Source: Arenicellales bacterium (GTDB lineage Bacteria; Pseudomonadota; Gammaproteobacteria; Arenicellales; JAJDZL01). Taken from it: DNA of 64,000 nucleotides. The position numbers and the translations under genes were made by a program. A model generated the notes under the pieces. That model made no database searches. It was not told where the DNA came from and saw only the letters and a program-made list of their open reading frames with translations. Shown piece after piece: positions 5,403 to 41,720 of this stretch. The first letter of the stretch is position 1. Each line of letters starts with the position of its first letter. The stretch is taken from the NCBI GenBank assembly GCA_965214615.1, contig OZ243952.1, positions 2,445,734-2,509,733 of the forward strand, given 5' to 3'.

Positions 5403-6263
5403 TTACTGGGACTTTGCAGATTCATTTGCGGCGTGCTCCATGTCTCTTGCCAGAGCATCCATCAATTGAGACGAACCGCCGAGCGACCAGCCGCCATCCA
5501 CCGGAATCACCGCACCGGTCAGGTAACTCGCCAGAGGCGAGGCCAGAAAAATTGCCGCATTACCGATATCGGAAGTGGTGCCAAGCCTGCTAAGCGGCAC
5601 CGAATCGGCTACCGCATCCATCAGTTCGGGAGTCGGTGCCAGGCGATTCATTCCCTCGGTATTTTCAATTGGACCGGGCACGATCGAATTGACCCGGATG
5701 CCCTGTTCTCCCCATTCCATTGCCAGCGTGCGTGTGAGCATGTCGACGCCGGCCTTGGCAGCGCATACATGAGACTGCAGCCGCATCGGTACAAAAGCCT
5801 GAGGAGCGGATATATTGATCACGGAAGCGCCCGGTTTCGCCAAATGCGCATAGGCGCTGCGCAATACGTGGTAGGTGCCCAGCAAATCGATGTTAACCAC
5901 TGCGGCAAAGCCGTTCGGCGACATATCTGCGGCACGGGCGGGAAAGTTTCCGGCGGCACCGGAAATAACGACATCGAATGATCCGAAGCGTTGCGCGAAG
6001 TTCGCAAGTGCAGTCTCGATGCGTTCGCAGTCCCGGACATCCGCGCTAAATCCAGCTGCCTGGCAGCCTAGGACTGTCAGACGGTCAACCGCGGCATTTA
6101 CTTTTTCCGGGTCGCGGCTGATTAAGCCGAGATTCGCGCCAGCGGCAGCGAATTGTTCGGCAACACCCAGATTGATACCGCTGGTGCCCCCGGCGACAAT
6201 GACTGTCTTGCCGGAAAAACTCAGACGTTCATCCATGCTGCCAGGAGATAGCCGCTCTTGCAT
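5403..6263 (-). CDS. Short-chain dehydrogenase/reductase, 2,4-dienoyl-CoA-reductase-like subgroup
   Basis: GKTVIVAGGTSGINLG Rossmann motif. The active-site region HVCAAKAGVDMLTRTLAMEWG resembles DECR-type SDRs, where the usual YxxxK Tyr is replaced. An alternative start is the Met at 6236. Confidence 0.85.
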   Translation of the reverse strand: MQERLSPGSMDERLSFSGKTVIVAGGTSGINLGVAEQFAAAGANLGLISRDPEKVNAAVDRLTVLGCQAAGFSADVRDCERIETALANFAQRFGSFDVVISGAAGNFPARAADMSPNGFAAVVNIDLLGTYHVLRSAYAHLAKPGASVINISAPQAFVPMRLQSHVCAAKAGVDMLTRTLAMEWGEQGIRVNSIVPGPIENTEGMNRLAPTPELMDAVADSVPLSRLGTTSDIGNAAIFLASPLASYLTGAVIPVDGGWSLGGSSQLMDALARDMEHAANESAKSQ

Positions 6264-23100: not shown

Positions 23101-26100
23101 CCGGACTGTGTAGCTTTTCTCATTGTCGGTGATGCCGTCATTTTCATCGGCATCGGTTTCTCTCAGTGGCACTTCGGATTCGGAGATAGTCACGCCGCGC
23201 TCGTCGTCATCTTCAACGGTGAGCGTCTTGTCGTCAGGACTCACCACATCAATGCCGCCGCTCGCCGCGGCCGATACCTTGAATGTCTTATCTAGCGCAT
23301 CGATTTGATTTGCCTGCGCGGTAATCGTCACCTCTTCCGTACTGGCTTTTGCGCCTGCAGCAATCGTCAATGTCGTGTTGCTGCTTAAAGCGATATCAGA
23401 TGCAGCCGCCGGCGATACATGCGTGGCACTTACTTCCAACGTTACGGCCTCACTGGCAGTGCCACTCATGCTAGCGGTCACAGTCGAAAGACCGGAGTCT
23501 GCACCGCCGTCTTCAGTAATTTTTTCGGGCGATAGAATTAGAGTGACTTCCGGGGTGTCCTCGTTGTCATCAATCGTGAAAGTGGCCGGAGATATCGTTA
23601 TTGCTGAAAGACCGTCAATCGTGCCGTTCACGCTGAGTGTTTCGTCACGCTCGTATATTTCGTCATCCTTAAGCGTGAGTTCGAATTCCCCTTCTATCGA
23701 ATCAGTGCCCGCAAGAAGTACGATGTCGAATTCCGCTACTGCGGCATAATCATCAGTTACGGTTGCAGGGTAGGTTTTCCCAGGCCCGACGTCGATTGTT
23801 ATGGCTTGATTTTCAGCAAATCGAGTTGCTCCGGAAATTGTCGCTGTGACTGTAACTTCAACTTCACCTGAATCTTCCACAGCCGAGGTCTGCGCACCTG
23901 CAGCCGCGGAAACATCTATAGCCAGATTGATGACGCTCGGAGCGGCGTCTTCGTCGTTGACTGTCACCTCGATGTTATCAATCGTAAGGTCTGCGTAATC
24001 GGTACCTGAACCGTCGATTGTGTGGGATATTTCTGTCGTTCGCTTGTCTTCGGGGTTGTCGATATTGTCGTCCACCGCGGAGACTGTGATCGTCCTCGAC
24101 TGATTCCAGTTCGATGGCGTGAACGTAATGCTGGTCGGGGTAACCGTCGCAACCGACGCAACCGACGTTTCTGAACTTTTTAGATTGACAGTTACATCAC
24201 CCGTCGGTTCGCTGTCGAGTACGATTGTGTATTCATTCTGGGTGCTTTCCACCGAGTTAGTATCAGGGTCGTCCGATTCCCATATCTCAATCTTGGATCC
24301 AGCGGACAGGGTTACACCACGAGTATCGTCATCTTCAATTATGAGTGTTACGGATTCTTCTGGGTCTTCAACATCGTGGCCGCCGCTCGCTGTTGCCGAA
24401 ACAGAAACTTTCTTGTTCTCTGCATCGATTTCATTGTTCACGGCAGTAATCGTAACTGTCTCTGTACTGGCCGTTGCACCCGCTGCTATCGTCAGTGTCT
24501 TTGCATCACTCAGTGTGAAATCAGAATTCACTGCCGGCGCAAGCGCGGCTGCTTTGACCGTAAGTTCAACCGTCTCGCTTGCTTCGCCGCTCAATGTGGC
24601 TTCCACGTTGGTTGATCCGCCGTTCTCACCGATACTTGCATCCGTCAAGCTCAGGGTAACTGTCGGTTTTGGCTCATCGTCGCCTATCGTTATCGTTGCA
24701 GGCGTAAAGGTCACGCCATCAAGCTTTCCCGTTACACTGATTGTCTCGTCCAATTCGTAAATATCGTCGTCGGACAACTTCAGAGTAAACGGTTCGGTAA
24801 AACTTTTTTCCCCTGCCGGTATTTTGAGATCGAAATCTGGCACGGAAGTGTAGTCTTCGCCCTCAGTCGAGGAGTCGCTTGGGATGTCGCCGACAGAAAT
24901 TACGACAGTCTTGTCGGTAGAAAACCGTGTCGGGCTAGTGATTTCGGCGGTGACATTGACCGATAAATCTCCATCGCCTTCATCAACTTCGTCCTGATCG
25001 CCTTGCGTGTCGGTATCGGTGTCTACCGTAATCGTGATTGCGTTCGGCGCAGGGTCATCATCGTTGATTGTGCCGGTTGCCTGGCTCGTTTCAATCGCAG
25101 GTGCCGGAAGCCCGTCTAATGCTCTCGGGGCGGCCAGCGTCACCAGAAAAGTTTCGTTTTCTTCGTCAAGAATGTCTTGCGAAGAGGCGACGGAAAAATT
25201 CTGGTCTGTCACCCCTTCACCAAACGTAAGAGTCGCACTATTTGCGGTGTAATCTTTATCTGCGATGGCGTGATTTGCACCTGTGTCGTCCTTAGTCTGT
25301 GCTCGAACTGAAATCCTATTGCCTGTTGCGCCTGTTCTTTTGACCTTGAAAGCAAGATTGGTCCCTTCTGTTGCCGTAGCAGCTTCGATCGAAAATTTTG
25401 GTTGCGTCTCATCATCCTTGATAGTGAATTGAAGTGGTTTATGACCGTCTGGGCCGTCTGCTGCTTTTAATCCATCGTTAAACGTACTTGTGCCGAAATT
25501 TAAATCAATTTTGAATGTTTCGTCGCGTTCCCACAAATCATCGTCTTCTGGGGAGATCGTTACTGTGCAGACATACTTTGCTGGGCTGCCTTCTTCTGCG
25601 CATTCAGACCCGTCAACTTTATCTGGTGCAAAAAAATCATCTGGTTTTCCTCCCTTTGCTGGATTGACAGGCGTATATTTCAGTGCAAAGCTCGGCTGTC
25701 CCTCGTCCAGATCAACCGTAAACGGCGCATTTTCGGAACTTGTAACCGGACCATTCGGCGGTCTCGCCAATTCAATTTCGAATGTAAGCTTCGCATCCGA
25801 ATCCTCGTCAATCTCGCTACTGCTAAGGTTCCGCAATTTCACCGGAGTTTTGTTGACATCAATCATGACGACTTCGAATCGGTTGCGGTCCCCTCTTTCG
25901 TAGTTGGAATCCAATTTTGATTCATCGATTTCGATTGCGAGTAGTTCGTAGTGGCGCTCGTCTATGCCATCACTTTTTATCTTTAGGGTGGCTGTTCCGG
26001 ATGTCTGTCCCGCACTTATGGTGATAGCAGCGGGCAGATCAAAGTCAGCCGAGTCTACTGTCGTCGATGGAAACCCAATTGGTTTCAGTGGAATCGTCAA

Positions 26101-27282: not shown

Positions 27283-27314
27283 TCCACCCCCCCCCTCATA
27301 TCAAGGTGGGAATG
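27279..27314 (-). promoter_or_regulatory. Translation-initiation region of the giant gene: SD-like G tract, start-codon-occluding hairpin, 6-codon uORF
   Basis: mRNA: CAUUCCCACC-uugauaugaGGGGGG-GGGUGGAAUG. CAUUCC pairs with GGAAUG (includes the AUG) and ACC pairs with GGU, leaving one bulged C. The uORF is AUG AGG GGG GGG GUG GAA UGA (27299..27279); its UGA overlaps the main AUG (AAUGA). Function is inferred only. Confidence 0.35.
27287..27295 (-). repeat. Homopolymeric G9 tract (C9 on + strand) 4 nt upstream of the giant gene's ATG
   Basis: + strand reads attcca-ccccccccc-tcatatc. On the mRNA strand this is ..gatatgaGGGGGGGGGtggaATGagtggc. Confidence 0.95.
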
Positions 27315-29778
27315 AATCCGTAGTGCGTATCCTTGAATATCAAAGCGACGGGAATTGCGATGGCAGTTCCGTCTTAACCAATCAAACACCAGAATATTTC
27401 CTAAATATAATAAATATATGATAGATATCTTATATTGCACAATAGATTGCGCCTATTTTAACAAATTTGCAATCAGAATCCATCCAATTCATTCAGTCTA
27501 GAAAATTAGACTTGAATGAATGGCAAAGGCCGAGTTGGGCAACTCTCAATGAGTCATCCTGGACGTTGAATCGCAAACTGAATTGTTAGGTAGTATTGCA
27601 GCTATTCTCGTCCAGCAAATGAAGCGCTAAAGTGAGGGGTGCCGATAAATAGAGAACACCACCAAGCGCTTAGAGAAGGTTGAGTTGGAGATAGGATTGG
27701 TTCGCGTGCAGTTTTTGCAAATACCATGGTCATATAATTGTTCTACATCTACGAAATTGTCAAAATACGTTTCGGTTACTTGGTAATGTCAGCACAATGA
27801 CTGCTTCGACAAGAATCGAAAGCTGAAAAACGGATGCGGACACCTCAAGAGCAATACGCGTCAGACGTTATGAGCAGTTCTCAGACGAGTGTGTATGGTG
27901 CGCATATGCCGAACCAGCGAAACTGAGCATTTCATTGAAAAAACTTCCATCGTTGTGGGAAGTTTGCACCTTGGACCAAGGCATGAGGATCCGCGAATAT
28001 CTGCTGCGAGTCAGTTTCATCCTGACTCTTCCTATCACATCTGCAAATTGTTCCATGGTTTCTCAAACCCCGCCGCACCTTGCAAAGATCGACGTCAGTC
28101 GCACTAGAATCCGTGTCATGATGTTCAACCGCTGCACCACCTAGACGATGCAATTATGATCAATCACCTTGTCCAAATCCAACCGGAACCGGTGAAAGGA
28201 ATAAATTTATATTTCAGTCGTAATTATAACATCATGAGATTTTTTTTCGAATGTCCATTTTTCGACGAGGTGCCTCAGATTTCGGCGTCAACCCAATGAA
28301 CGCATCGGGTTGCTACTCATTTTCTTGCTATCCTTCGATAGTGTCGGATACTTTCAAAATGCCCCTATATTGCGACACAGCCTATGGATGCCGAATTAAT
28401 CTGAACTTCATTGACCAAATGTAATTCCGGTTGCACCCTATATCGTTAAATGAAACATTTACCGTCGATTTGTCGAGTTAAAACTGTGATTGCACTGAAT
28501 ATACGTGTGTTCGGATCCACGCCGAGCAAAACCATAGCCTTGGCTTGCACTGGCGTCATTTGCACCACCACCGGCACCGTCGCGTCAATCCTTCCAGGCA
28601 GCAAATCCTCATTGAACGTCAAGGTCGACAATTCGTCGAGCACCATAGCAAAGTTGTGCACCGGATAGTCGTCTTTTGGTCTTTTTTGTCACCGCCCTTT
28701 CCATTGCCCGGTCCGATACCTGCACCTTGGCCACCGCTGAGACTCGGCACGCAAGCACCGAGTCGTGTTCGTCTTCGAATAACACCGGCGCAAACCTTGC
28801 GCGCATGTGCCGTTCGAGTGTTGCCGCCGGTCGGACGTATTTCCGCAGCGATTGTTAAGCGCAATCTAATTCAGGTGACCCAGAGTCAACGCCGCGAGGC
28901 CGGCTGCGTTTGCAAGTGGAGCGTTTGCGAGGGTATCAAGAACCTGAGCGATATCGCCACAGTCGAATTCGGTTTAGCGACCGTCCGCTTGCTGTCGATA
29001 CGCGGCGTTCAAAAAAGTCGGCAAATGCCAATTGCTGCCTAACCCTACTCCTACGCTAATCTACCCAGGTCTGGAATTGGGAGAAAGTTCGCAGAATTCG
29101 GTTCATAGACACACACGTACCGAGATGGCGCAGCCGACTGCCCGAAGACTTGGCGAACCAATGTGGTTCTGCCAATTTGGAGCGGACAGGTTGCGATCGT
29201 CAACCACCGATGAATCTCCCGCAGGCGGTCGACTGGCGTGGATATCTGACCTCGTGCATAGGATGCCATAGCAGCAATCCAATGTATTGAGCGAATTTAC
29301 TCGAAACATTTCATCACTCGACGAAATCGATGGCCGCAGAGATTCGAGGCGCAACCTGGCTGGTTCTTGCTGCGCCGGGAGGTTTCCTTACAGGCAGGCG
29401 TACGTACGGCGAACGTAATTCGAGTAATCATTCGACTCTGACGCGGCGCGCTCACAGATGACCTGATCCCAACCTCCGTTGACACGGAATGGAAGCATGG
29501 GATCGAGGATGCTCGTCGGTCTGCAAAATACAATCCGGATGGTATTCACCGCGATACCTGCGAACAATTGAATGAAGCGCGAATTTGAACTGCTTCGGCC
29601 ATTTCGGTTATTATTTTTTCATTCTGGTCAGGAAATTAGCGACTCATTCCCAGTATCGCAACTGAACGCGAGCAGCGCTCCGCGATCCGAACAGAGCAAC
29701 CGGTTGCTCAGAAACACCTAAACCCACAGAATCAGAGACATCACGTTCACATTCAATTGAAATTCGTAAATCACCGCA

Positions 29779-30798
29779 ATGAATTTTGACGCCGCCAATG
29801 GACGGATCCTGGATCTGTCTCACGAGCAAAGCACTGCCCGCTTGGACCGGCAAGTGACCGATGCCCGCGCGTGGCTCGGCAGCGACATTGCCCCATCCGA
29901 ATGCCTGATCAGCATCAGCGACGCGGTACGCACCGAAATACTCGCCATGGCAGACGCAATGCGCGCCAATCCGCTTCCGACCGTGCTGAGGCGCGCGTCA
30001 CAGTTTGAAATGCCGAATATTCTCGAGCTTATGCGCGATGTTCGAAACCGTCTCAACAAGCCGCCGCACATCGCCGTGATCGACGCTATGCCGCTGGATG
30101 ACCTGGAAACCGACCAGGCGATTGACGCCTACTGGGTTCTGGGCCAGGCCATCGGACGCAATGTCGCGCAAAAGTGGGACGGAACAATGGTCTACCACGT
30201 ACGCGACACCGGCACTCCGTGGCAATACGGGGTACGCGGCTCCTACACCGCGGTCGAACTGCTGTTTCACAATGACAACGCTTTCGGAATCGCCTTGCCG
30301 CACTACGTCGGCCTGCTGTGCCTGCAGCCGGCAAAGCAAGGCGGGATGAGTCGATTCTGCAGCCTCCACACGATCCACAACCGAATGCTTCGGCAATATC
30401 CGGCCGAACTGGGTCGATTGTACGAACCGGTTCTGTGGGACAGGCAGGCCGAACATCCCCAAAACGATCCGGTGGCAGCCAGTGCCCCGGTGTTCTCCTA
30501 CACCGGCAGCCGACTCAGAACCCGGGCCAATCCGAGCCTGATCTTCAACGGTTACAAGGTCGCGGGCATTGAAATGGATCCGGCAACGTCGGATGCCGTC
30601 GACGCGCTGAAAGAAGTTTCTGAAGACCCGGAACTGTGGTTTGAAATGCCGATCGAGCGCGGCCACATGCAGTACATCAACAATATCGACATCGCCCACT
30701 ACCGAAGCGAATTTGTCGATTTTCCAGATCCTGGAAAAAAGCGGCATCTGGTACGAACCTGGCACCGCGATACGGGACAAGTCACCTACAACGGATAG
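29779..30798 (+). CDS. TauD/TfdA-family Fe(II)/2-oxoglutarate dioxygenase, substrate unknown
   Basis: 339 aa. HxD iron motif in ..VELLFHNDNAF.., distal His/Arg region ..NNIDIAHYRSEF...KRHLVRTW. The overall layout is typical of the clavaminate-synthase-like TauD family. The 260-aa ORF on the opposite strand is rejected. Confidence 0.8.
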   Translation: MNFDAANGRILDLSHEQSTARLDRQVTDARAWLGSDIAPSECLISISDAVRTEILAMADAMRANPLPTVLRRASQFEMPNILELMRDVRNRLNKPPHIAVIDAMPLDDLETDQAIDAYWVLGQAIGRNVAQKWDGTMVYHVRDTGTPWQYGVRGSYTAVELLFHNDNAFGIALPHYVGLLCLQPAKQGGMSRFCSLHTIHNRMLRQYPAELGRLYEPVLWDRQAEHPQNDPVAASAPVFSYTGSRLRTRANPSLIFNGYKVAGIEMDPATSDAVDALKEVSEDPELWFEMPIERGHMQYINNIDIAHYRSEFVDFPDPGKKRHLVRTWHRDTGQVTYNG

Positions 30799-30802
30799 GA
30801 TT

Positions 30803-30848
30803 CAATCCTTACATCAAACCACAGCTAACTCGGGGGCTTGATTTTGTA
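30803..30848 (+). repeat. Left terminal inverted repeat of the IS4-like element
   Basis: caatccttacatcaaaccacagctaactcgggggcttgattttgtat matches the reverse complement of 32412-32458 (caatcctttcatcaaaccacagttaactcggggcttgatgtttatac) with 4 mismatches and a 1-nt indel. Confidence 0.85.
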
Positions 30849-31707
30849 TCAGTTTGAGATTTTCTGTGCATTCATTCCTCGGAACATGATTAACGCCGGG
30901 GTGAACAAGGCAAGCGCCTCCCACAATTTTCGAGTTCCCGGCAAAGGCTGACTTTTTTTCGACCCGAGCCCGGCGACACTCGCAAGGTCGATGACAAAGG
31001 TGCGGATCGTCGGATCCGGCTTCGGCGGCCCCCGGGAACCGCGAATGCCGCGATAGTGTAAATACCGATACTGTTCTTCGACCTGATCGGCTCCCACCAC
31101 ATCCCTTGCCAAGACGCCCGGATTGCTGTGGGCCATGTAATTCAGATCATGGATGTGACAAGCGGTGACCGCATCGAACACCAGGTATTTGTGTAAATAA
31201 TCGGCATGGTCGAATTGGCGCGAACCGACGCTCGTGCCGTTTTTCAATACGCTGAACAGGTCTCAATGTGCCATCGCAACTCATACCAGCGCACCACCTT
31301 GAGCGCCTGGACGGCATCGGCCCCGCCATCGGTTGTCAGCAACAGCCAGTGCAGTGGCTCGGCATCCCTGGGCGGTTCGATCTCGTCTAAACGCTCACCG
31401 CAAGCATGCGCACCGGCGATTTGTCCTTTTCATTAACCGGAGCCTGCAATCCGGCAGGCGGGGAAAACTCACTGACACGCCCGGCAACGCCGGCGCGGGC
31501 CGTCGGCAGCGAAAACCCTGCCTTGTCTGCAAGCCCTGCCAGCGCCTTTCGCGCCGAACTTATCGCAGGACGCCCCTTGCGGTTATGCTGTTCGTCTAGC
31601 TCGCACAGCAGACGGGCAAGATCGCCGCGCGTTGTCGACGGCTTCGATAACTCCTCCATCACCTGCGTGACAGTCTCGGCACTGAAATGGCGCATTCCAA
31701 TTTGCAT
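30849..31707 (-). pseudogene. IS4-family (Tn5-like) DDE transposase, 5'-truncated and frameshifted
   Basis: Three frames join as ..RKGRPAISSARKA..SPVRMLAV / GERLDEIEPPRDAEPLHWLLLTTDGGADAVQALKVVRWYELRWHIETC / FSVLKNGTSVGSRQFDHADYLHKYL...LASVAGLGSKKSQPLPGTRKLWEAL. By eye this is colinear with Tn5 Tnp ..PLKWLLLTS...YTHRWRIEEFHKAWKTG...IARLGGFMDSKRTGIASWGALWEGW. At least 2 frameshifts, and the N-terminal ~190 codons are missing. Confidence 0.7.
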
Positions 31708-31783
31708 GCCGATATGATGGCATAATCATTTTCCGAAGTGAACTATGGCCATATGAACGGTTTGTAAGCGTCTTTGAAGATGT

Positions 31784-32062
31784 CTATGCCGTAACTGATA
31801 AGCGTACACCCAACGCATGCATCAACCGGTGGATGGTGTGCCATTTGGGTTGTACCTGACCATTAATCACTTTGTAGAGACTCTCGCGGTTCAGCCTAGC
31901 TGCTTGAGCCACCTGAGCGACACCCTTACGCTTGACGGCATGACCTAAGGCCACGACAAAGACAGCAGGGTCATCGTCCTCGTAGGCATCAGTCAGATAT
32001 TGAGATAGATCATCGTCGACTAGTAAATGATCAAAGGGATTATAGTCCGTCAGCTTAGTCAT
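31784..32062 (-). CDS. higA: HigA-family addiction-module antidote protein (HTH antitoxin)
   Basis: MTKLTDYNPFDHLLVDDDLSQYLTDAYEDDDPAVFVVALGHAVKRKGVAQVAQAARLNRESLYKVINGQVQPKWHTIHRLMHALGVRLSVTA matches the antidote-protein pattern (..PFD..YL.D.E....YL........DP.....ALG.IA...G....A...G..RE.LY..L......P.....V.KV..ALG..L). It starts 4 nt downstream of the toxin gene. Confidence 0.85.
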   Translation of the reverse strand: MTKLTDYNPFDHLLVDDDLSQYLTDAYEDDDPAVFVVALGHAVKRKGVAQVAQAARLNRESLYKVINGQVQPKWHTIHRLMHALGVRLSVTA

Positions 32063-32066
32063 GGTC

Positions 32067-32366
32067 TCAAACCTCCAATTCGCTCAATATTCGATGCGCG
32101 CGGGCAATATCGCGTGATTGACTGGACTTATCACCAGCGCACAACAAAATGAGAAGGTCGCTATCACGTATCGAAAAGTATATCCGGTAACCTGGCCCTG
32201 CGAATACTCTCATTTCACTCACGCCCTGCCCCACTGGCTTGGTGTCGCCAAGATTTCCGGCAACTGCTCGGTCCAATCGTTGAGCGATAGCCCTCGCAGC
32301 CTGGCGGTCGCGGACCCGAGATAGCCAGCGATTGAAGTCATCGGTGGTAACTACGTGATAGCGCAT
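32067..32366 (-). CDS. higB: HigB/RelE-superfamily addiction-module killer protein (toxin)
   Basis: MRYHVVTTDDFNRWLSRVRDRQAARAIAQRLDRAVAGNLGDTKPVGQGVSEMRVFAGPGYRIYFSIRDSDLLILLCAGDKSSQSRDIARAHRI matches the killer-protein pattern (F..WL..L.D..A...I..R..R...GN.GD.KPVG.GVSE.RI..GPGYR.YF......L..LL.GGDKS.Q..DI..A). The ORF-track start at 32384 is an alternative. Confidence 0.85.
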   Translation of the reverse strand: MRYHVVTTDDFNRWLSRVRDRQAARAIAQRLDRAVAGNLGDTKPVGQGVSEMRVFAGPGYRIYFSIRDSDLLILLCAGDKSSQSRDIARAHRILSELEV

Positions 32367-32411
32367 ACGCGCATTGTAGCTCATGAGCTACACGGAGACA
32401 AGGCAACTTAC

Positions 32412-32458
32412 GTATAAACATCAAGCCCCGAGTTAACTGTGGTTTGATGAAAGGATTG
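32412..32458 (-). repeat. Right terminal inverted repeat of the IS4-like element
   Basis: See the left repeat. The similarity also shows up as matching C-terminal tails of two shadow ORFs (..DRIQSLHQTTANSG vs ..DRLQSFHQTTVNSG). Confidence 0.85.
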
Positions 32459-32944
32459 CAACCTGTCCGGGCATTGATCCGGTGGTTGGATGCCGCCAGC
32501 CTGATGTGCATATCCTCGGCTTCGCCGTTGACCTCGGCGATTGCCGCGACAAATTCGCAGGACATTCCGGTGATTGCAGTTTCCGCAATCGATCTTTGCA
32601 CGGGCCTGCGTATCACATGCCGACAATATTTCGCGTCTGACTGAAGGGAACGTAAATAAATTACCCTTCCAATGGAATTGATGGTGTTATAAATGGCGAG
32701 ACAGAAAAGTTACACAAAGAAATCTTTTACGCAAATAGCAAGCAACACTAAATAAGGATGTTGCTGTCTTTACGAAAGGACCGGAAAGGGAAGTTCGCTC
32801 ATTGAATCGGTATTTCAAAAATAGGCAGATGATTTAGTTTATTTATTTTATTCATAGACTTAAATTAATTATTTAATTTATTACCTGATATTAAGTGTCA
32901 AATCTTGGAACAGGAGGGCGGATATTGTAACGCTCAGCGTAAAG

Positions 32945-33423
32945 TTGGAATATGTGGAACCCGAAGTAAGCAGAACCCTGCTGGTGCCATATGATTTGAC
33001 ACTAGACGACTTGCACGACACTTTGCAACGTGCCTTCGGTTGGGACAATAGTCACCCATGGCTGTTCGAACTTGCAAGACAATCTAGAAGACAGGTTGTT
33101 CCCGAATGGCTATTCGAAGATGACGAAGTATGCGAAACTACCGTCCGTGACACCATGTCCGCACTTTGATGTATTTGTACGACTTCGGAGACAAATAGGA
33201 GCACCGCAAACGTATCGGAAGAAAGGCAAAGGCCAAGCGAGGTCAGCTGTATCCTCAGTTGGTCGAAAGGAAGGGAAGGACGCCGCCGGAGGACGTCGGC
33301 GGACCTCCGGGCTACGCACATTTTTTGAAATCACTCGGCAGGGACCACTATCCAAAACGCGGGGTTTATGTGCAGTGGTATCAAGCAAAGTTTGACCGTT
33401 TCGATACGAAAGAGGAAAACTAA
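32945..33423 (+). pseudogene. Plasmid pRiA4b ORF-3-like family protein, inactivated (frameshift plus TAG nonsense)
   Basis: ..LSVKLEYVEPEVSRTLLVPYDLTLDDLHDTLQRAFGWDNSHPWLFEL.. (frame 1, stop at 33167-69) continues after a frame slip as LMYLYDFGDK*EHR...YPQLVERKGRTPPEDVGGPPGYAHFL... The family hallmark YDFGDxWEH has its TGG replaced by TAG. No clean ATG start. Confidence 0.7.
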
Positions 33424-33658
33424 AACAGAACGTTTTGTCGTGGGCTGATTTCTTGTCCGGAAGTTTTGAAGACGAATGACATTTCCGCAACCGGATATCA
33501 GCACGGACAGGACGACGGATGCCGCAACAGATGCAAAAAGAGTTTCAAAGATTTCAGTCAAGGGCAGTCATTTGCAGCATGCATGTTGCAATGCAAATTC
33601 ATTGTAACAGGGCAGTACTAGGTTTCGCGACGTTCATCAATTTCCATTCGCAGCCGCT

Positions 33659-34894
33659 ATGCAAGCCACAATGAATTCCACGAATCCGCACCACCGCATG
33701 GACGCGGGGCCTGAATCGCTATTGGCCCGGCTGAATCAACTCTCAACCCGCGACGATTCGCGATTCGGCACCTTCGATGAAGACGGAATTGTCCACTTCG
33801 CAGGCGAATTCTGGACTGCGCAGCAACGCCAAGGCAACCGCATCCATGAAATCAGCTACCGTGCGTGCTTCAAGCCGCAACTGCCTGAATTTTTCATCAA
33901 TCGCCTCACCGAACCGGGAGACATCGTCTATGACCCGTTCATGGGCAGGGGAACAACTCCCGTCGAGGCTGCGCTTCAAGGGCGTGTCCCTTATGGCAGC
34001 GACATCAACCCGCTCAGCAAGGCACTCGCAGAACCGCGAATCAACCCTCCTTCGCTCAAGGCCGCGATGAAACGGCTCGAGCAAATTCCGTGGAGCAGTT
34101 TTCGCCGATACGAGCATCGGGATCTCCTAGCCTTCTACCACCCGACAACACTGGCTCAAATCGAGGGACTGCGCAACTGGCTCGCCGAACGCGAATCGTC
34201 AGACCGAATGGATCAGGCGGACCGGTGGATTCGGATGGTCGCGATCAATCGGCTGACGGGACACTCTCCCGGCTTTTTCTCGGTCTACACAATGCCGCCA
34301 AATCAGGCAGTCACCGTAGAGCGCCAACGGCTGATCAACCAGCGCCGCGGGCAGACGCCGAGTCTTCGGGATGTGCCTGCCATTATTGCAAAAAAGTCCA
34401 AAGCCCTGCTCAAAGACGAAGCACCGCAGACACGCGACTGCCTGCTGCTCACCTGCGAGTCCGACAAGACATTCCAAATTCCGCCGGATTCGGTCACCCT
34501 GACAGTGACGTCGCCTCCATTTTTGAAAGTCGTCAATTATGAGACGGACAACTGGCTGCGATGCTGGTTCCTGGGCGTCGACTCCAGACAGGTCGCGATT
34601 GCAAGCTACTCCAGTCTCAATTCGTGGCAAGCATTCATCGCGCGCACGCTCAATGAGCTATACCGGATTACCCGCCCAGGCGGGCACGTCGCATTCGAAG
34701 TCGGCGAAGTTCAAAAGGGCACGGTCAAATTGGAAAAAAATGTGGTCGCAGCAGCAGCCGATACAGGATTCAAGATCGAGTGCATCATCATCAATCAGCA
34801 AAATTTCACCAAGACATCCAACTGCTGGGGCATTGCCAACAACACCTCGGGCACCAACAGCAACCGGATCGTCGTGCTGCGCAAAGAGCCATGA
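33659..34894 (+). CDS. Orphan alpha-class N4-cytosine/N6-adenine DNA methyltransferase (N4/N6 MTase family)
   Basis: 411 aa. AdoMet motif I DPFMGRGTT (aa 92-100) precedes catalytic motif IV TSPPF (aa 284-288), which is the alpha-type order. SPPF/SPPY is most typical of N4-cytosine enzymes. No endonuclease-like neighbour. Its stop overlaps the pdxJ start (ATGA). Confidence 0.85.
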   Translation: MQATMNSTNPHHRMDAGPESLLARLNQLSTRDDSRFGTFDEDGIVHFAGEFWTAQQRQGNRIHEISYRACFKPQLPEFFINRLTEPGDIVYDPFMGRGTTPVEAALQGRVPYGSDINPLSKALAEPRINPPSLKAAMKRLEQIPWSSFRRYEHRDLLAFYHPTTLAQIEGLRNWLAERESSDRMDQADRWIRMVAINRLTGHSPGFFSVYTMPPNQAVTVERQRLINQRRGQTPSLRDVPAIIAKKSKALLKDEAPQTRDCLLLTCESDKTFQIPPDSVTLTVTSPPFLKVVNYETDNWLRCWFLGVDSRQVAIASYSSLNSWQAFIARTLNELYRITRPGGHVAFEVGEVQKGTVKLEKNVVAAAADTGFKIECIIINQQNFTKTSNCWGIANNTSGTNSNRIVVLRKEP

Positions 34895-35622
34895 CAAAAC
34901 TGAGCGTCAATCTAAATAAAATTGCACTGCTGCGCAATTCGCGAGGTGCGAATTATCCGAAAGTTCTTGATTTTGCCGAACTGTGCGCACGCTGCGGCGC
35001 CCACGGCGTTACGGTACATCCTCGTCCCGACCAGCGCCACGCCACATATCAGGACGTCCGCGATCTTGCACAATTCAGGGACAGGCACCCTGAAATCGAA
35101 CTCAATGTGGAAGGCTACCCCGCTGCGGATTTCATTGCCGCAGTAATCGCGGCAAAACCCGATCAATGCACCCTGGTGCCCGATGATCCTGATCAGGTGA
35201 CATCGGATCACGGATGGGATACGAGGACGCGCAGCGACTATCTGGCCAAAATCATTGAAGACCTGCGGGCAAGCGGAATTCGAAGCAGTATCTTTCTGGA
35301 CCCTGATCCGGAACTGATCGAATCAGCCGCAGGCACCGGCGCGGACCGGATCGAACTGTATACCGAAGCCTACGCCAAGGCATACGGAACCGAAGATGAA
35401 GAGCGCACGTTCGAACTCTACCGCAAAACAGCGGAAAAAGCCCTTGAACACGGACTCGGACTCAACGCCGGACATGATCTGAATCAGTTGAATCTCGCCA
35501 AATTCCTGACTATTCCGGGCATACTCGAAGTATCGATCGGACACGCATTGACTGTCGAGGCCCTGCTCGACGGCTATGAGTCAACGATTCGGGCCTATGT
35601 CCGAATTGTAAATTGTGCCTGA
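34891..35622 (+). CDS. pdxJ: Pyridoxine 5'-phosphate synthase
   Basis: Internal Met of the 34780..35622 ORF. MTKLSVNLNKIALLRNSRGANYP...GAHGVTVHPRPDQRHATYQDV...ELNVEGYP...DQVTSDHGWD...ELYTEAYA...GLNAGHDLN...EVSIGHAL fits the PdxJ pattern of the HPRPDxRH type. Confidence 0.85.
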   Translation: MTKLSVNLNKIALLRNSRGANYPKVLDFAELCARCGAHGVTVHPRPDQRHATYQDVRDLAQFRDRHPEIELNVEGYPAADFIAAVIAAKPDQCTLVPDDPDQVTSDHGWDTRTRSDYLAKIIEDLRASGIRSSIFLDPDPELIESAAGTGADRIELYTEAYAKAYGTEDEERTFELYRKTAEKALEHGLGLNAGHDLNQLNLAKFLTIPGILEVSIGHALTVEALLDGYESTIRAYVRIVNCA

Positions 35623-35630
35623 CAGCGACT

Positions 35631-36485
35631 TCAGGCACCTAAGGCGATTACTTTCTGATATTGCTCGCCGAGACCTTCGATGCCAAGGCGCATTTCATCG
35701 CCGGGCTTGAGAAACATTTGCGGCTTCAAGCCCATGCCGACCCCCGAAGGCGTTCCGGTAATCACCAGGTCGCCGGGTTCCAGAGTCATGTGGCAACTGA
35801 CGTAGCTGACTAGGTGCGCCACCGAAAAAATCATGTCATCGGTGCGGCCTTCCTGCAGCCGCCGACCGTTGACTTCAAGCCACACAGACAGATTCTGAGG
35901 ATCGGCCACCTCGTCGGCGGTCACCAGATACGGTCCAAACGGACAAAACGTATCGGCGCTCTTGCCTTTCGTCCACTGTCCCGTGCCTTCAATCTGAAAG
36001 GCGCGTTCTGACACATCATTGACCACGCAGTAGCCCGCCACATAGTCAAGCGCGTCTGATTCGTCCACGTACTGCGCCCTGGTGCCGATCACCACGCCAA
36101 GCTCTACCTCCCAGTCCAACTTGGTGCTGCCGCGCGGCTGAACCACATCGTCATCAGGCCCGCAAATCGACGTGGTAGCCTTCATGAATATGATCGGCTC
36201 CGCCGGTATGGCAAGGCCGGCCTCCTTGGCATGATCCCTGTAGTTCAGTCCGATGCCGACAACCTTGCCAACACCGGATACGGGCGGTCCGATGCGCTGA
36301 ATATTCGCCTGCGCGACAAGCGGCAGCGAATCGACATCTACCCTGGCCAGCGAGGCCAATGCGTCCGGCGACATCGTTGCCGCGCCGATGTCGGCAACAT
36401 AGGCCGACAGGTCGCGAACTTGGGAATTCGAATCAAGTACTCCGGGCTTTTCGTTACCCGCACTACCGTAGCGAAGCAGTTTCAT
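35631..36485 (-). CDS. Fumarylacetoacetate hydrolase (FAH) family protein
   Basis: MKLLRYGSAGNEKPGVLD... N-domain, then ..KVVGIGLNYRDHAKE...PIIFMK...LDWEVELGVVIG...VAGYCVVNDVSER..Q...GQWTKGKS.DTFCPFGP..., the canonical FAHD/YcgM-type core. Confidence 0.85.
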   Translation of the reverse strand: MKLLRYGSAGNEKPGVLDSNSQVRDLSAYVADIGAATMSPDALASLARVDVDSLPLVAQANIQRIGPPVSGVGKVVGIGLNYRDHAKEAGLAIPAEPIIFMKATTSICGPDDDVVQPRGSTKLDWEVELGVVIGTRAQYVDESDALDYVAGYCVVNDVSERAFQIEGTGQWTKGKSADTFCPFGPYLVTADEVADPQNLSVWLEVNGRRLQEGRTDDMIFSVAHLVSYVSCHMTLEPGDLVITGTPSGVGMGLKPQMFLKPGDEMRLGIEGLGEQYQKVIALGA

Positions 36486-36599
36486 ATTGCAGAATCCTTA
36501 GTTGACTGATTGATACGCCTGGCGCATTCTCGACGCCTGAAAGAGGACGGCATTATAGACGCTGCGACACGCCTCGGCTATGCTGCGTTGCAGGTTTTT

Positions 36600-37361
36600 T
36601 CAAATGGCCTGAAAAAACTGAATGACGAGTATCACCCCGACCACAAAGAGCGCTCCCTTTATGATTCTGCGATATCGTTCCGACTCGATACGATCGCGGA
36701 ATCGCTTGCCCGCCAAAAGCGCCAGGCCGGATACCGCAGCCAGCGGCACAGTCGCTGCCGCTATGTGCCAGTCATAGATGCCCGCGGTGCTGAACACCCC
36801 GACCTGGGTGGCTTTTCCAGTCAGAAAGAACAAGTTGAACACCGGCACCATGGTGGCTCTCGACCATCCCATTTCGAGTGCATAGATGATCATAATGGGC
36901 ACCATGGTGTTGGTTGCTCCTGCCGATATTCCTGCGACAAGACCGAACCCGGCACCTGAGCTGCGCCTGAAGCGGTGGAGAAAGCCGAACACCGCTCTTT
37001 GCGAACGGTCAACCGCAAGATACAGGAACACGAGCACCGCGAGCAGCAATTTGAACGGACCGGGATCGTTGACGGCGATCAGATAGGATCCGGCAATTCC
37101 GCCGATTGCGACCCAGACCGCAACAGACCAGAACTTGCCGATGCTGCTTCTCCAGTCGCTGCCGCTGAAAATGCTGATCACATTGACCACGATGGTCGGA
37201 AGCAGCGTGATCAGAATTGCTGTTCTGACATCGACAAATATCGAAAGCAGTGGCGTTGAAATGAGCGGAAAGCCCAATCCCAGTGCGCCGTGGACGACAG
37301 CAGCAGCAATCAGAATGGATGCGAAAAGAGCTAGATCAAGTGCCGTTGCCGCATCTAGCAT
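36600..37361 (-). CDS. TSUP (TauE/SafE) family anion exporter
   Basis: 253-aa polytopic protein. The N-terminal ..AAAVVHGALGLGFPLISTPLL.. and second-half ..GLVAGISAGATNTMVPIMIIY.. repeats are typical of TauE/SafE. Its start overlaps the ugd stop (TGATG). Confidence 0.8.
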   Translation of the reverse strand: MLDAATALDLALFASILIAAAVVHGALGLGFPLISTPLLSIFVDVRTAILITLLPTIVVNVISIFSGSDWRSSIGKFWSVAVWVAIGGIAGSYLIAVNDPGPFKLLLAVLVFLYLAVDRSQRAVFGFLHRFRRSSGAGFGLVAGISAGATNTMVPIMIIYALEMGWSRATMVPVFNLFFLTGKATQVGVFSTAGIYDWHIAAATVPLAAVSGLALLAGKRFRDRIESERYRRIIKGALFVVGVILVIQFFQAI

Positions 37362-38797
37362 CAGTGCAGAATACTTTCATCCTTAAGGTCTGGAACGTCT
37401 TGAGAGTCGGCAGCCCTTTGCCGCTTGAAAGCGGTAAATTTCCGACTCAGCGGTTCCAGGGATTCATCGGCATCGGAGGGCTGGCGCATCACCTGCCCCT
37501 GGCCGACGCCCTGGTAGTCGAATCCGGCTTCCAGCATGTCTTGCGCCTCATACATGTTGTGCAAATCTACAAGGACCGGACTTGCGAGCATGCGCATCAG
37601 ATCCGGCAGTGACAGCTGCCCGTATTCAGGCCAAGCAGTGGCAATCACCGCTGCGGCGCATCCGTCCGCCGCCGCATACGGACTGTCGTGGTAGTCGACA
37701 TCGCTAAGCTGCAGGCGCGCAGCGGGAACTCCTTTCGGATCGTGCGCGTGAATTTTCGCTCCGTGACGCTGAAGCTCCCGGATAATCGCCACGCTCGAAC
37801 TGTCGCGCAAGTCATCGGTATTCGGCTTGAATGTCAAGCCGAATACGGCTATTTTCCTGCCCTCGACAGAACCGCCGCAGGCACGAATGACACGATGCGC
37901 CATGCGGATCTTGCGCTGGGAGTTGATGTCAGTGACCGTTTCAATGATCCGAAGCGGCGAACCGGCGCTCTTGGCCGTGTGAATCAGCGCCAGCGTATCT
38001 TTCGGGAAGCAAAGCCCGCCGTAGCCGGGTCCGGGGCGCAAATACAAATTCCCGATTCGCTCGTCCAGGCCGATGCCATGGGCGAGTGCGCGAATGTCGA
38101 CCCCGGTCTGCTCGCAAAGATCCGCCACTTCATTGATAAAGGTGATTTTCGTCGCAAGATACGCGTTTGCAGCGTATTTGATGAGCTCGGCTGTCTCCAG
38201 ATTGGTGTAAAGCACCGGTACGCCGCTTAGCGAAAGCGGGAGATAAAGCTCGGCGAGAATTTCCTGCGCGCGCTCCGACTCTACCCCCACAACGACGCGG
38301 CTGGGATTCATAAAGTCCTTGACCGCCGTGCCCTCGGCAAGAAACTCGGGATTGGAAACGACGTCAAATTTTTTCTGCGGCAAAAGCGAACGCATCAGGT
38401 CCGCCACTTTTGCCCCAGTACCGACCGGCACGGTGGACTTGGTTACCACAACCGCATAATCGTCAATCTGGGCCGATACCTGGCGCACTACTTCAAAAAC
38501 ATCTGAAAGATCGGCGGCGCCGGTCTTTTCATCCGCCGGAGTATTGACGCAGATGAATATCACCTTGGACTGCCTGACCGCAAAACCGATGTCCGAAGTA
38601 AAGTGCAGCCGTCCGGTTTCGATATTGCGCGTCAGAAGATCAGAAAGGTTTTCTTCGAATATCGGAGATTCTCCGCGCCTGAGCACTTCAAGGCGCCGTT
38701 CATCCTTGTCGACGCAAATCGTTTCCACGCCCAATTCGGCGAAGCACGCGCCTGTGACAAGGCCGACATAGCCGCTGCCGATTATTGCAATTTTCAT
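37361..38797 (-). CDS. ugd: UDP-glucose 6-dehydrogenase
   Basis: Start moved to MKIAIIGSGYVGLVTGACFAELG (38797). Also ..NPEFLAEGTAV.DF..P.RVVVG.., and the catalytic GGLCFPKD. The C-terminal ~40-aa tail is unusual. The ORF-track N-extension (to 38881) is rejected. Confidence 0.88.
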   Translation of the reverse strand: MKIAIIGSGYVGLVTGACFAELGVETICVDKDERRLEVLRRGESPIFEENLSDLLTRNIETGRLHFTSDIGFAVRQSKVIFICVNTPADEKTGAADLSDVFEVVRQVSAQIDDYAVVVTKSTVPVGTGAKVADLMRSLLPQKKFDVVSNPEFLAEGTAVKDFMNPSRVVVGVESERAQEILAELYLPLSLSGVPVLYTNLETAELIKYAANAYLATKITFINEVADLCEQTGVDIRALAHGIGLDERIGNLYLRPGPGYGGLCFPKDTLALIHTAKSAGSPLRIIETVTDINSQRKIRMAHRVIRACGGSVEGRKIAVFGLTFKPNTDDLRDSSSVAIIRELQRHGAKIHAHDPKGVPAARLQLSDVDYHDSPYAAADGCAAAVIATAWPEYGQLSLPDLMRMLASPVLVDLHNMYEAQDMLEAGFDYQGVGQGQVMRQPSDADESLEPLSRKFTAFKRQRAADSQDVPDLKDESILH

Positions 38798-39025: not shown

Positions 39026-40366
39026 ATGAACGAACAATCCCGAATCTACTCGGTTAACGAATTAAATCAGGAAGCTAGAGACAATCTTGAATCCAAGTTC
39101 AGCAATATTTCCGTCGAGGGCGAAGTATCTAGATCAATTCTCGCCAACTCCGGTCACATCTACTTCAACCTCAAAGACGAACACGCCCAAATCGCATGCG
39201 CATTTTTTCGCAGCAGCGCATACCGTTCCAAGCACAAGCCTAAAGACGGCGAAAAGATCATCGCAACAGGAAACCTTTCGATCTATCCCCAGCGAGGGAA
39301 CTACCAGCTCATTGTCAGAATGGTTGAACTTGCCGGTACAGGAAACCTATGGATGAAATTCGGCGAGCTGCAGGAACGGCTCAGAAAGCTTGGATATTTT
39401 GACGAGGCGAGGAAAACGCCGGTTCCTCAGTGCCCGAAGCGAGTGGGCATCATCACCTCGCCGGACGGAGCTGCTGTTCAAGACATCATTCGAGCGTTTT
39501 CAAGACGCTTTCCATCCATTGAGCTTATTGTATATCCGACCCTAGTTCAAGGCGATCTCGCGGCAAAGCAAATCGCTAAAATGGTACACATTGCGAACGA
39601 GCGCAAGGAAGTCGACGCAATTATTATGAGCCGCGGGGGCGGCTCGATTGAAGATCTATGGCCATTCAATGAGGAAGTTGTCGCCGAGGCGATCAAAAAC
39701 AGCAAACTTCCAGTCGTGACCGGCGTCGGACATCAGACCGATACCACCATTGCGGATCTTGTCGCTGACGCGCGTGCGGCGACTCCGACCGCGGCGGCCG
39801 AGCTTCTCAGCACCCCTGCGATGGGCGACGTGATTCGTCAATTGCAAACTGCCGAACACAGGCTGGACAGTGCCGTATCGAACAGACTGGGCAATCTTGG
39901 ACAAAGGGTCGACTACGCCGAAAAGGGGCTGGTGCACCCGAAGCAGAAAATTGCCAATCTCGATGCGAGATTCGAACACGCCGCCCAAAGCCTCACGTCG
40001 CGGATACTCGAACAGCTTCGCACCAATGCCGACCAATGTCGGGCATTGCATCAGGCGCTTGGCGCCGCATCGCCGGTCAAACCCATCGATTCTCGGCGCA
40101 TGGTGACGGAGAATTTTCAGAACGTTATTCAGCTGCAAGCCGCAAATCGATTGAAGGAGTTTCGCGCTGGCTTGTCATCGCTGCAGTCCAGGATCGAGTC
40201 TACAAATCCCGATGCAACTCTTAAGCGCGGATACGCGATTGTCCGAAGCAAATCTGATGACAGAATTCTGCGCAATACCGAATCGGTTGCCAAAGGACAT
40301 AAGATCACCGCTCAGTTGCATTCCGGAGTTCTGCACTGCGACGTTGAAAAAGTTGCAGACCGCTAA
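39026..40366 (+). CDS. xseA: Exodeoxyribonuclease VII large subunit
   Basis: 446 aa. N-terminal OB fold (..YSVNELNQEARDNLESKFSNISVEGEVS....SGHIYFNLKDE.AQI.CAFF), ..VGIITSPDGAAVQDI.., ..RGGGSIEDLWPFNEE.VA.AI..S..PVVTGVGHQTD.TIAD.VAD.RA.TPTAAAE. Confidence 0.9.
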   Translation: MNEQSRIYSVNELNQEARDNLESKFSNISVEGEVSRSILANSGHIYFNLKDEHAQIACAFFRSSAYRSKHKPKDGEKIIATGNLSIYPQRGNYQLIVRMVELAGTGNLWMKFGELQERLRKLGYFDEARKTPVPQCPKRVGIITSPDGAAVQDIIRAFSRRFPSIELIVYPTLVQGDLAAKQIAKMVHIANERKEVDAIIMSRGGGSIEDLWPFNEEVVAEAIKNSKLPVVTGVGHQTDTTIADLVADARAATPTAAAELLSTPAMGDVIRQLQTAEHRLDSAVSNRLGNLGQRVDYAEKGLVHPKQKIANLDARFEHAAQSLTSRILEQLRTNADQCRALHQALGAASPVKPIDSRRMVTENFQNVIQLQAANRLKEFRAGLSSLQSRIESTNPDATLKRGYAIVRSKSDDRILRNTESVAKGHKITAQLHSGVLHCDVEKVADR

Positions 40367-40415: not shown

Positions 40416-41720
40416 CTATAGAATGCCGGTTCTATGGGTTTGCCGTATTTGCCTGATCAAATGTTCATCGACACCGGCTTCATCGGCAAATGACTCCCAT
40501 TGCGCTACTGCGCTTTGAACCTGATCGATAATTTGCTCGGCGCGACCGCGCTTCATGGAAGCGTGCTTCGCACAAGCTTTGAAATCATCCAGCTGAAAGT
40601 TGTCGCGTTTACCGTTCAGAGTCATTTGATGTGCATTCGTCCAAGCGCCTTCAGAATTGAAACTGTAGGTCAGATCGTAAGCCGGCGCAAGTCTCCAATT
40701 TCCCCCGCGATCCATAAGGAAGGCAATATTCTTGACGTGATCATCCTGATTTCGGGCGATGACGTTGAAAGACATTCTTCGAAACTGCTCTTCAACCGAA
40801 TCCATCGATTTTTCCAAGTCTCGGATTGTCGCGAGACACTGCTCGTAGGAATAGACGCCAGGCATTCTGTAATCGTAATGGCTTATCGCGCCCAACGTCT
40901 GCATGTGAAGTTTTCGTCCGCTCCCAGTCCGATCGAATCGCCTCGTCATAAAATGGCTTCGTCCGTTTTCCTTGAGCAACCGACTTTCCATCATGTCAAT
41001 ACCGGCGGCTTGCGCCATTTTGTAATAGCCAAATTCAATCAGCCCGTAGCCGGTCGAAGCGCTGAAATGCACATCGTTGAAACCACCTGAGACGCCATCG
41101 AATTTCAAAAGCCAATAGGAAAATCCATCTTCAGCGTCCGCCTGCCCCGACCTCACTTCATTGGTTTCCGGATTCCACGCGATGACCGCTTTCGCTCTGG
41201 CGCCGCCCGCTGATGTTCCAACTCGCAGAATTTCCTCCATGACGCGATTCTCCCTGCCTGACGATAGTGACATGCAAAAATTGTGCCGGTCTGACAATAT
41301 TTTTTCCGCCAGAGCTACGAGTTCGCCGACTTCGACAATTTGCGACCACGTTGCACTGGGACCGATAACTGGAAGATATTCGATTGCCCCCATCCCTCGA
41401 GCGCCAACATAGCAAAGCCGTTCGACCGGATTGAAAGACTCTGCGCTTCGCCCCTGCATCGCTAGCCACGCATCAATCAGCGCATTTCCGAAATCATCCG
41501 GCAAGGAATCCGCCACCAGGCCAGGTAATCCGTGAAATGTGTCTCTGGGCAATGCAGGAAACGAGTAAATCCGCCGGGCAAGAGGCATGGTTAGCGGAGC
41601 CACCTCGATCGAGCTGTCAGCGAATCCCGGATCGTATTCGAACGACGCAACATTTGCCGCTGCATTCCAACTCACAGCGCCTACCGTTTTCCTCCACAGG
41701 CGCACTTCGGCGACAGTCAT
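40416..41720 (-). CDS. hipA: HipA-family serine/threonine kinase toxin
   Basis: 434 aa. HipA N-domain (..VGAVSW......FEYDP.F......VAPL.MP..), ..LAGAQ-like region, and a catalytic loop ..ARNQDDHVKNIAFLMDRGGNWRLAPAYDLTYS.. that appears intact. Its start overlaps the hipB stop by 1 nt. Confidence 0.85.
   Translation of the reverse strand: MTVAEVRLWRKTVGAVSWNAAANVASFEYDPGFADSSIEVAPLTMPLARRIYSFPALPRDTFHGLPGLVADSLPDDFGNALIDAWLAMQGRSAESFNPVERLCYVGARGMGAIEYLPVIGPSATWSQIVEVGELVALAEKILSDRHNFCMSLSSGRENRVMEEILRVGTSAGGARAKAVIAWNPETNEVRSGQADAEDGFSYWLLKFDGVSGGFNDVHFSASTGYGLIEFGYYKMAQAAGIDMMESRLLKENGRSHFMTRRFDRTGSGRKLHMQTLGAISHYDYRMPGVYSYEQCLATIRDLEKSMDSVEEQFRRMSFNVIARNQDDHVKNIAFLMDRGGNWRLAPAYDLTYSFNSEGAWTNAHQMTLNGKRDNFQLDDFKACAKHASMKRGRAEQIIDQVQSAVAQWESFADEAGVDEHLIRQIRQTHRTGIL

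Follow-up and report, generated by a model that had tools for sequence, protein, structure and literature searches.

A solitary DNA methyltransferase of restriction-modification origin overlaps the start of pdxJ in an Arenicellales bacterium

The 64,000-nucleotide stretch of DNA analysed here (the window) comes from contig OZ243952.1 of an Arenicellales bacterium and contains the gene of a Type II DNA methyltransferase (hereafter the methylase), the stop codon of which overlaps the start codon of pdxJ, the gene of pyridoxine 5'-phosphate synthase. The methylase is a solitary enzyme: it is an orphan of restriction-modification origin, and decay intermediates of the nuclease that once accompanied such enzymes are seen in homologous loci. 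We describe the protein and its joint with pdxJ, its family, the history of the locus in relatives, and the selection that acts on the gene.

The methylase is an alpha-class enzyme

The 411-residue protein matches N6_N4_Mtase (PF01555) in Pfam over two stretches (62.4 bits, cutoff 26.7, 7.8e-17), and its full length is matched by the PADLOC model MTase_II (PDLC03325; 6e-155). Motif I (DPFMGRGTT) lies ahead of motif IV (TSPPF), the two being ~185 residues apart, and the alpha-order SPPF methylase that the first-pass annotation of this DNA had recognized from the letters is thereby confirmed. An AlphaFold (AF2) model, based on an alignment of 36 homologues and reaching a pLDDT of 81, shows this order too. 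Strands are predicted at residues 89–92 and 110–114, a further strand (279–284) runs into the SPPF motif, and a helical insert of ~130 residues (approximately 118–250) splits the Rossmann core. The insert lies between the strands that bind S-adenosylmethionine (SAM) and the SPPF strand, as in the alpha order. Residues 49–118 map to positions 141–213 of the PF01555 profile. Foldseek comparison of the model with the Protein Data Bank (PDB) returned only generic class-I methyltransferases with TM-scores of at most 0.5, among them the alpha-class enzyme Dam.

The closest PDB entries by sequence are the N4-cytosine enzymes 8s9m and 1boo, which align in the motif regions only (1e-5 to 1.5e-7). M.PvuII and the other N4-cytosine enzymes of the N6_N4_Mtase family resemble the window enzyme in having SPPF as motif IV and a motif I of the FxGxG form. 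In contrast, they are of the beta class, in which motif IV precedes motif I, and measure ~250–320 residues, whereas the window enzyme is circularly permuted to the alpha order and carries the ~130-residue helical insert. The rule that links motif IV to the target base is not absolute. Judging from the SPPF motif and the nearest solved relatives, the methylase is probably specific for N4 of cytosine. A search for conserved palindromes upstream of the methylase at 79 loci, as candidates for its recognition site, yielded no hexamer clearly above background. The GC content at third codon positions is 0.67 for the methylase gene, inside the window range of 0.55–0.71.

Table 1. Features of the locus, in window coordinates
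Feature	Position	Strand	Evidence or remark
Solitary Type II DNA methyltransferase, 411 aa, alpha motif order	33659..34894	+	PF01555, PADLOC MTase_II
Motif I, SAM binding, DPFMGRGTT	aa 92-100, 33932..33958	+	invariant across 36 aligned homologues
Motif IV, catalytic, TSPPF (T284 to F288)	aa 284-288, 34508..34522	+	invariant across 36 aligned homologues
Methylase 3' end, ~37 codons, in frame, the only part surviving in relatives L085-L087	34788..34894	+	alignment; tblastn 4e-9
ATGA stop/start overlap, methylase/pdxJ	34891..34894	+	TGA 34892-34894, ATG 34891-34893
pdxJ, pyridoxine 5'-phosphate synthase, 243 aa	34891..35622	+	PF03740 3e-82; NCBIfam NF003626 336 bits, cutoff 222
Fumarylacetoacetate-hydrolase-family (FAAH) gene, convergent with pdxJ, closes syntenic block	35631..36485	-	PF01557 4e-73
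TauD/TfdA-family dioxygenase gene, ancestral upstream neighbour of pdxJ	29779..30798	+	PF02668 2e-26
Strain-specific 2.7-kb insertion (the island)	30819..33496		absent from co-occurring strain L126
Two ORFs in island	30849-31247, 31387-31707		no family match
Gp49/HigB-like toxin and HI1420-type helix-turn-helix antidote pair, in island	31784-32062, 32067-32384	-	Pfam
PRiA4_ORF3 pseudogene, two frames, upstream neighbour of methylase, in island	32945-33169, 33259-33423		Pfam
Methylase upstream region, common to island-less strain, holds palindrome	33497..33658	+

The family is a Type II cassette prone to losing its nuclease

A protein search with the methylase gave at least 8,000 matches, the best 120 of which are 61–70% identical to the query and ~405 residues long. 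Scanning one genome per species, we obtained 437 relatives and studied the gene neighbourhoods of the best 80. At least six phyla are represented among these 80 loci, many of which belong to metagenome-assembled genomes (MAGs) of Arenicellales, Paracoccaceae, Verrucomicrobiota, Acidimicrobiia and sponge-associated candidate taxa. Clustering of the neighbouring genes revealed a recurrent partner that starts 0–6 nt 3' of the methylase: an open reading frame (ORF) of ~215 residues with the PD-ExK-like signature GYPD...YLEVK, which is matched over its full length by the PADLOC model REase_II (PDLC03511; 9e-30). Searches of Pfam, NCBIfam and the PDB found no match for this partner nuclease; REase_II being generic, the specificity of the nuclease is not inferable from it. 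The nuclease is intact at ~10 of the 80 species loci, present as fragments at 5 and absent from 65. We conclude that the family is a Type II cassette of a methylase followed by a nuclease, from which the nuclease is often lost.

Six family nucleases, used as tblastn queries against the whole 64-kb window, found no match at E ≤0.01, and the ORFs beside the methylase have no defence-family match in PADLOC, so the original observation that no nuclease adjoins the gene holds. Relatives of the methylase in plasmid collections number only four, at 29–42% identity; they are annotated as "DNA methyltransferase" and have uninformative neighbours. Phage collections contained no match to the methylase.

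Orphan copies of the family recur beside particular chromosomal genes. At seven Arenicellales loci (L011–L013, L024, L026, L029 and L032) the neighbour is uvrB in convergent orientation, and at six alphaproteobacterial loci (L020, L022, L035, L039, L040 and L043) the methylase lies upstream of gcvT. A uvrA-like ABC ATPase gene adjoins the orphan at another seven (L047, L049, L054, L057, L059, L062 and L075), a group made up mainly of Verrucomicrobiota with one Arenicellales genome and one Chitinophaga-labelled MAG. The pdxJ case is thus one of several lineage-fixed orphans of this family beside housekeeping genes. As a side observation, two different excision-repair genes are paired with orphan methylases in two phyla.

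A separate arrangement was noted in an alphaproteobacterial MAG (L002/L019, OZ220465.1; approximately positions 6001–7540 of L002). An IS1595-family transposase gene overlaps the start side of the methylase by 4 nt, and a 104-residue N-terminal fragment of the nuclease follows the methylase. The locus seems to capture cassette mobility together with nuclease decay.

The methylase was gained between TauD and pdxJ

The first-pass annotation had proposed comparing relatives that carry pdxJ with and without the methylase, and such relatives exist. In L088, L089, L090 and L091, in which PdxJ is 72–77% identical to that of the window, the TauD/TfdA-family gene (TauD) is followed after 17–45 nt by pdxJ, and no remnant of a methylase is present. 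In L004, the PdxJ of which is 80% identical, the order is TauD, a gap of 39 nt, the methylase, the ATGA overlap, pdxJ and the FAAH gene. Finally, L085, L086 and L087 (PdxJ 75–76% identical) have otherwise identical synteny, with a 156-nt spacer that holds a stub of the methylase. Synteny on the FAAH side is seen in L004, L085 and L089.

The stub preserves the gene's 3' end, reading ...LINEQRFTKT...NRIVVLRKQL* where the window methylase reads IINQQNFTKT...NRIVVLRKEP*. Its ORF (L085:5849-6004, likewise in L086 and L087) comprises 45 codons if counted from an ATG and 51 from a GTG, and it ends in ATGA on pdxJ. The three loci are identical at the stub and hence represent one observation. In L085, the stub frame is open 72 codons back, into the 3' end of TauD.

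A tree of TauD, PdxJ and FAAH groups the window with L004 (87%) and this pair with L085 (77%), leaving L089 and L088/L090 outside. In 169 of 200 bootstraps the methylases of the window and L004 came out as sisters, and no others have their derived motifs GEFWT, GSDINPLSKA and LLLTC. The most economical reading of these sequences is that the methylase was gained once between TauD and pdxJ, in the ancestor of the three lineages, and was then partially lost once. An insertion upstream of pdxJ had been suggested from the window by itself, and the short TauD–pdxJ gap of the outgroups, which is free of any methylase trace, bears it out. At none of the 80 species loci does pdxJ lie within 4 kb of the methylase, and none of 32 more distant pdxJ loci contains the methylase. 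These 32 came from a JGI metagenome scan with PdxJ, are at most 61% identical over the full protein, and serve as a control without clade members.

pdxJ occupies the position of the nuclease at an ATGA joint

Inspection of the sequence confirms the reported overlap between the methylase TGA and the pdxJ ATG. The pdxJ start context is ccATGAcaaaa and the joint in the window reads ccATGACAAAACTG. The N-terminus of PdxJ, MTKLS(V/I)NLNKIALLRN, is kept from ATGAC onwards in every relative, whether the methylase is present or not, which rules out a mis-annotated pdxJ start. In the methylase-free outgroups, pdxJ begins ATGAC(A/C)AA, as it does in the window. The ATGA is intrinsic to the Met-Thr start of pdxJ. 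The same methylase/pdxJ joint is found in L004, and the L085 stub ends likewise.

An equivalent joint characterizes the family. Among the 15 loci with a nuclease or a nuclease fragment, 7 have an ATGA between methylase and nuclease, as ATGAC in L002, L009, L018, L028, L036 and L050 and as ATGATG in L027; the remaining nuclease-bearing loci mostly have 1-nt overlaps, for example TGATG or TAATG. The 4-nt coupling had been called unusual, a description that does not survive this comparison. Because ATGA is native to the methylase–nuclease cassette, the coupling to pdxJ represents cassette architecture with pdxJ in the place of the nuclease, and it was most likely inherited from the methylase-to-nuclease joint. 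Even before the insertion there was no space for a separate pdxJ promoter, from which we infer that the methylase and pdxJ are co-transcribed, pdxJ being the distal gene of the unit. pdxJ may be translated by termination–reinitiation at the ATGA.

Purifying selection acts on the methylase protein

Among 90 homologues of the methylase, 121 alignment columns are conserved in at least 95% of the sequences, and the window methylase keeps all 121. The L004 orthologue is long-branched and differs from the consensus of the family at 4 conserved columns. Between the window and L004, the methylase shows a nonsynonymous divergence (dN) of 0.30 and a synonymous divergence (dS) of ~2, which is saturated; the flanking housekeeping genes of the same pair have dN values of 0.15–0.23. 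Over a far shorter distance, the methylases of the window and the co-occurring strain L126 differ at nine nucleotides, eight of them synonymous and one nonsynonymous (T280N). The methylase ORF is intact in lineages in which the flanking proteins have diverged to 70–80% identity. A 219-residue "truncated" methylase (P0242) was considered as a sister-strain pseudogene and rejected as a gene-calling artefact, the ORF being intact in L126.

These comparisons indicate that purifying selection acts on the methylase protein, beyond the mere upkeep of an open frame. The conserved columns and the synonymous excess speak against a dead remnant and also against a gene that serves purely as a translational spacer. 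Conversely, the near-complete deletion of the gene in the L085 lineage shows that the methylase is dispensable. Given the same block in L004 and the purifying selection, the gene is a domesticated, lineage-conserved orphan, in line with one of the two initial proposals for it; the caveat is its loss in L085–L087.

A recent island lies upstream of the resident pair

L126, a strain from the same sample, is 98.6–98.9% identical to the window and aligns to positions 26610–30818 and 33497–38541. It is without the segment between these blocks (30819–33496) and yet has an intact methylase–pdxJ pair. The absence of the island from L126 marks it as a recent strain-level insertion beside a methylase–pdxJ pair that was already resident. 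The methylase had been described as an island-border gene; this description falls with the later arrival of the island, and island cargo was likewise rejected as an origin of the methylase because L126 retains the gene without the island. In the island's place, L126 has a perfect hairpin of 52 nt, the stem of which measures 19 bp (L126:4211-4262; AATGAATAGGATCTTATCG...CGATAAGATCCTATTCATT).

The upstream neighbour of the methylase is indeed a pseudogene, as first noted, with PRiA4_ORF3 matches in two frames. Within the toxin–antidote pair, the toxin match (PF05973) is below threshold and the antidote match (PF21716) reaches 1.7e-20. The island also contains an AT-rich stretch. A 44-nt inverted repeat, 89% complementary (30792–30835 and 32426–32469), flanks the left 1.6 kb of the island, and its left arm spans the last bases of TauD plus 20 nt of flank outside the island. 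The island thus contains its own insertion junction a second time, in inverted form, which suggests an inversion or a composite element.

The palindrome reported upstream of the methylase, ATTTGCA (33570–33576), N15 and TGCAAAT (33592–33598), is real, but its coordinates had been given one base off and it is not statistically notable. When the 235-nt upstream region is shuffled, 22% of the shuffles contain a perfect inverted repeat of at least 7 nt with a spacer of at most 20 nt (P = 0.22), and the palindrome is not conserved at the orthologous L004 locus.

Other features of the window

A giant ORF of 6,745 residues (7045–27282, minus strand) lies between an SDR gene and TauD and has a counterpart with Calx-beta domains in L001. 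The SDR gene and TauD are adjacent in L004, so the giant gene was inserted in the window lineage. The 5' part of this gene (window 23085–28746) is 86.8% identical between strains, against ~98% in the flanks. On the other side of the locus, a HipA-family kinase toxin gene (40416–41720, minus strand; HipA_C 1.7e-53, Couple_hipA 6e-19) adjoins xseA (39026–40366).

Discussion

The locus is best explained, with a probability of roughly 0.72, by a predicted active, solitary Type II methylase that is the surviving half of a methylase-then-nuclease cassette, inserted once and kept by selection; this explanation is drawn from sequence comparison. The cassette would have entered the short TauD–pdxJ spacer on a single occasion, in an ancestor shared by the window organism and the L004 and L085 lineages. 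With the removal of the nuclease, the methylase stop would have shifted from an overlap with the ATGAC of the nuclease start to an overlap with the pdxJ start, and a deletion between the ATGAC microhomologies of these two starts would be the simplest route to the present joint. Thereafter, the methylase would have been retained for a useful activity of its protein and not for a coupling that could not be deleted. By analogy, the likeliest benefit would be protection from the many cognate restriction systems that circulate in communities of this kind, a "molecular vaccination" as proposed for Dcm against EcoRII (PMC2993543). Restriction-modification genes are reported to be enriched in sponge symbionts (PMC5649159). 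An epigenetic role would be the main alternative benefit (PMC12707154).

Known systems provide the frame for this explanation. The window methylase resembles the Type II methylase-then-nuclease operons (PDLC03325 plus PDLC03511) in its full-length match to their methylase model, and the intact cassettes found elsewhere agree in the order of the genes, with the same ATGA or 1-nt overlap of stop and start. Unlike them, the window has neither a nuclease nor a remnant of one and has pdxJ in the nuclease position. Dcm of E. coli is likewise a chromosomal orphan that is kept by selection while mobile restriction systems of its family or specificity circulate around it (PMC2993543). However, Dcm methylates C5 of cytosine and its sequence class is unrelated to that of the window enzyme, for which a protective role would be an analogy.

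Several points weigh against this explanation. The dS between the window and L004 is saturated, and the arrangement is carried only by two species-level lineages and their strain variants. The position of L089 in the tree has 77% support, and a clean loss of the methylase in L089 is possible. The joint may equally have arisen when a methylase-only fragment integrated directly at ATGAC. A promoter and terminator scan yielded nothing on the plus strand, where no sigma-70-like promoter lies upstream of the methylase, and no excess over shuffles. A Shine–Dalgarno sequence is missing before pdxJ, an absence that we considered as evidence of coupling and dropped because most window genes also have none.

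Among the alternatives, the one that fares best is an epigenetic regulator of expression or of the cell cycle, of the Dam/CcrM type, in which the link to pdxJ would tie methylation capacity to metabolism. Like the window enzyme, methyltransferases of this type have no partner nuclease, occupy a fixed chromosomal position within a lineage and are under purifying selection, and regulatory roles are frequent among lineage-conserved orphans, as reviewed (PMC12707154). The strong purifying selection on the window enzyme, the upkeep of the locus in two diverged lineages and the repeated fixation of the family as an orphan beside uvrB, the uvrA-like gene and gcvT would all suit such a regulator. However, the window methylase is conserved only shallowly, in two species-level lineages, and has been lost from a third of otherwise identical synteny; the next outgroups are without it. 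Its motif IV residue points to cytosine N4 and not to adenine N6, no functional logic joins a methylase to vitamin B6 synthesis, and the upstream palindrome is not significant. By analogy with Dam and CcrM, then, a regulatory role is conceivable; we regard it as unlikely.

The joint also permits explanations in which the methylase persists because of its neighbour. pdxJ may have taken the exact ATGA place of the restriction enzyme and be expressed through the methylase ORF, such that the methylase, or its 3' end, persists by hitch-hiking on an essential gene; in this general form we consider the proposal quite unlikely. If true, it would represent a novel "addiction" in the place of post-segregational killing, with the coupled, in-frame L085 stub as its footprint. 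The stricter, selfish version holds that the essential pdxJ needs transcription through the methylase and termination at the ATGA, so that deletions are counter-selected whatever the state of methylation. The methylase does lie between pdxJ and whichever promoter it is driven by, and the L085 lineage has kept the last ~37 codons in frame, with an open frame upstream and an ATGA end. Yet a need for translation would keep only an open frame, whereas all 121 conserved positions are kept and the changes are overwhelmingly synonymous. The first-pass annotation had held that the methylase would be hard to lose and might be an addictive insertion. Neither idea fits the L085–L087 loci, where ~90% of the methylase proved deletable and almost the whole gene is gone but for a stub of 45–51 codons: one lineage has simply lost it. 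The open frame of that stub is ambiguous, since 45 codons can remain open by chance after a recent deletion and the three identical loci count once. The strict version is accordingly decidedly unlikely.

It is barely credible that a dead restriction-modification system has left the methylase behind, inactive and awaiting deletion. The nuclease is gone, one lineage has deleted the methylase and the L004 orthologue is long-branched and off consensus at 4 conserved columns, but the ORF is intact in lineages whose flanking proteins have diverged to 70–80% identity, dN is much lower than dS, the window copy is off consensus at none of the 121 conserved columns, and the strain-level changes are eight synonymous to one nonsynonymous.

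The window methylase is an orphan of the expected kind and does not challenge current views on orphan methyltransferases or overlapping genes. Its value lies in being a clean and datable case in which a restriction-modification cassette, once mobile, has turned into a resident orphan methylase. The steps are readable from existing genomes: the cassette was inserted into a housekeeping unit of two genes, the nuclease was lost at the joint, the methylase was kept under purifying selection, and a sister lineage lost it independently. The enzyme-bearing window, L126 and L004 on the one side and the stub-only L085–L087 on the other constitute a natural experiment, present in long-read metagenome assemblies.

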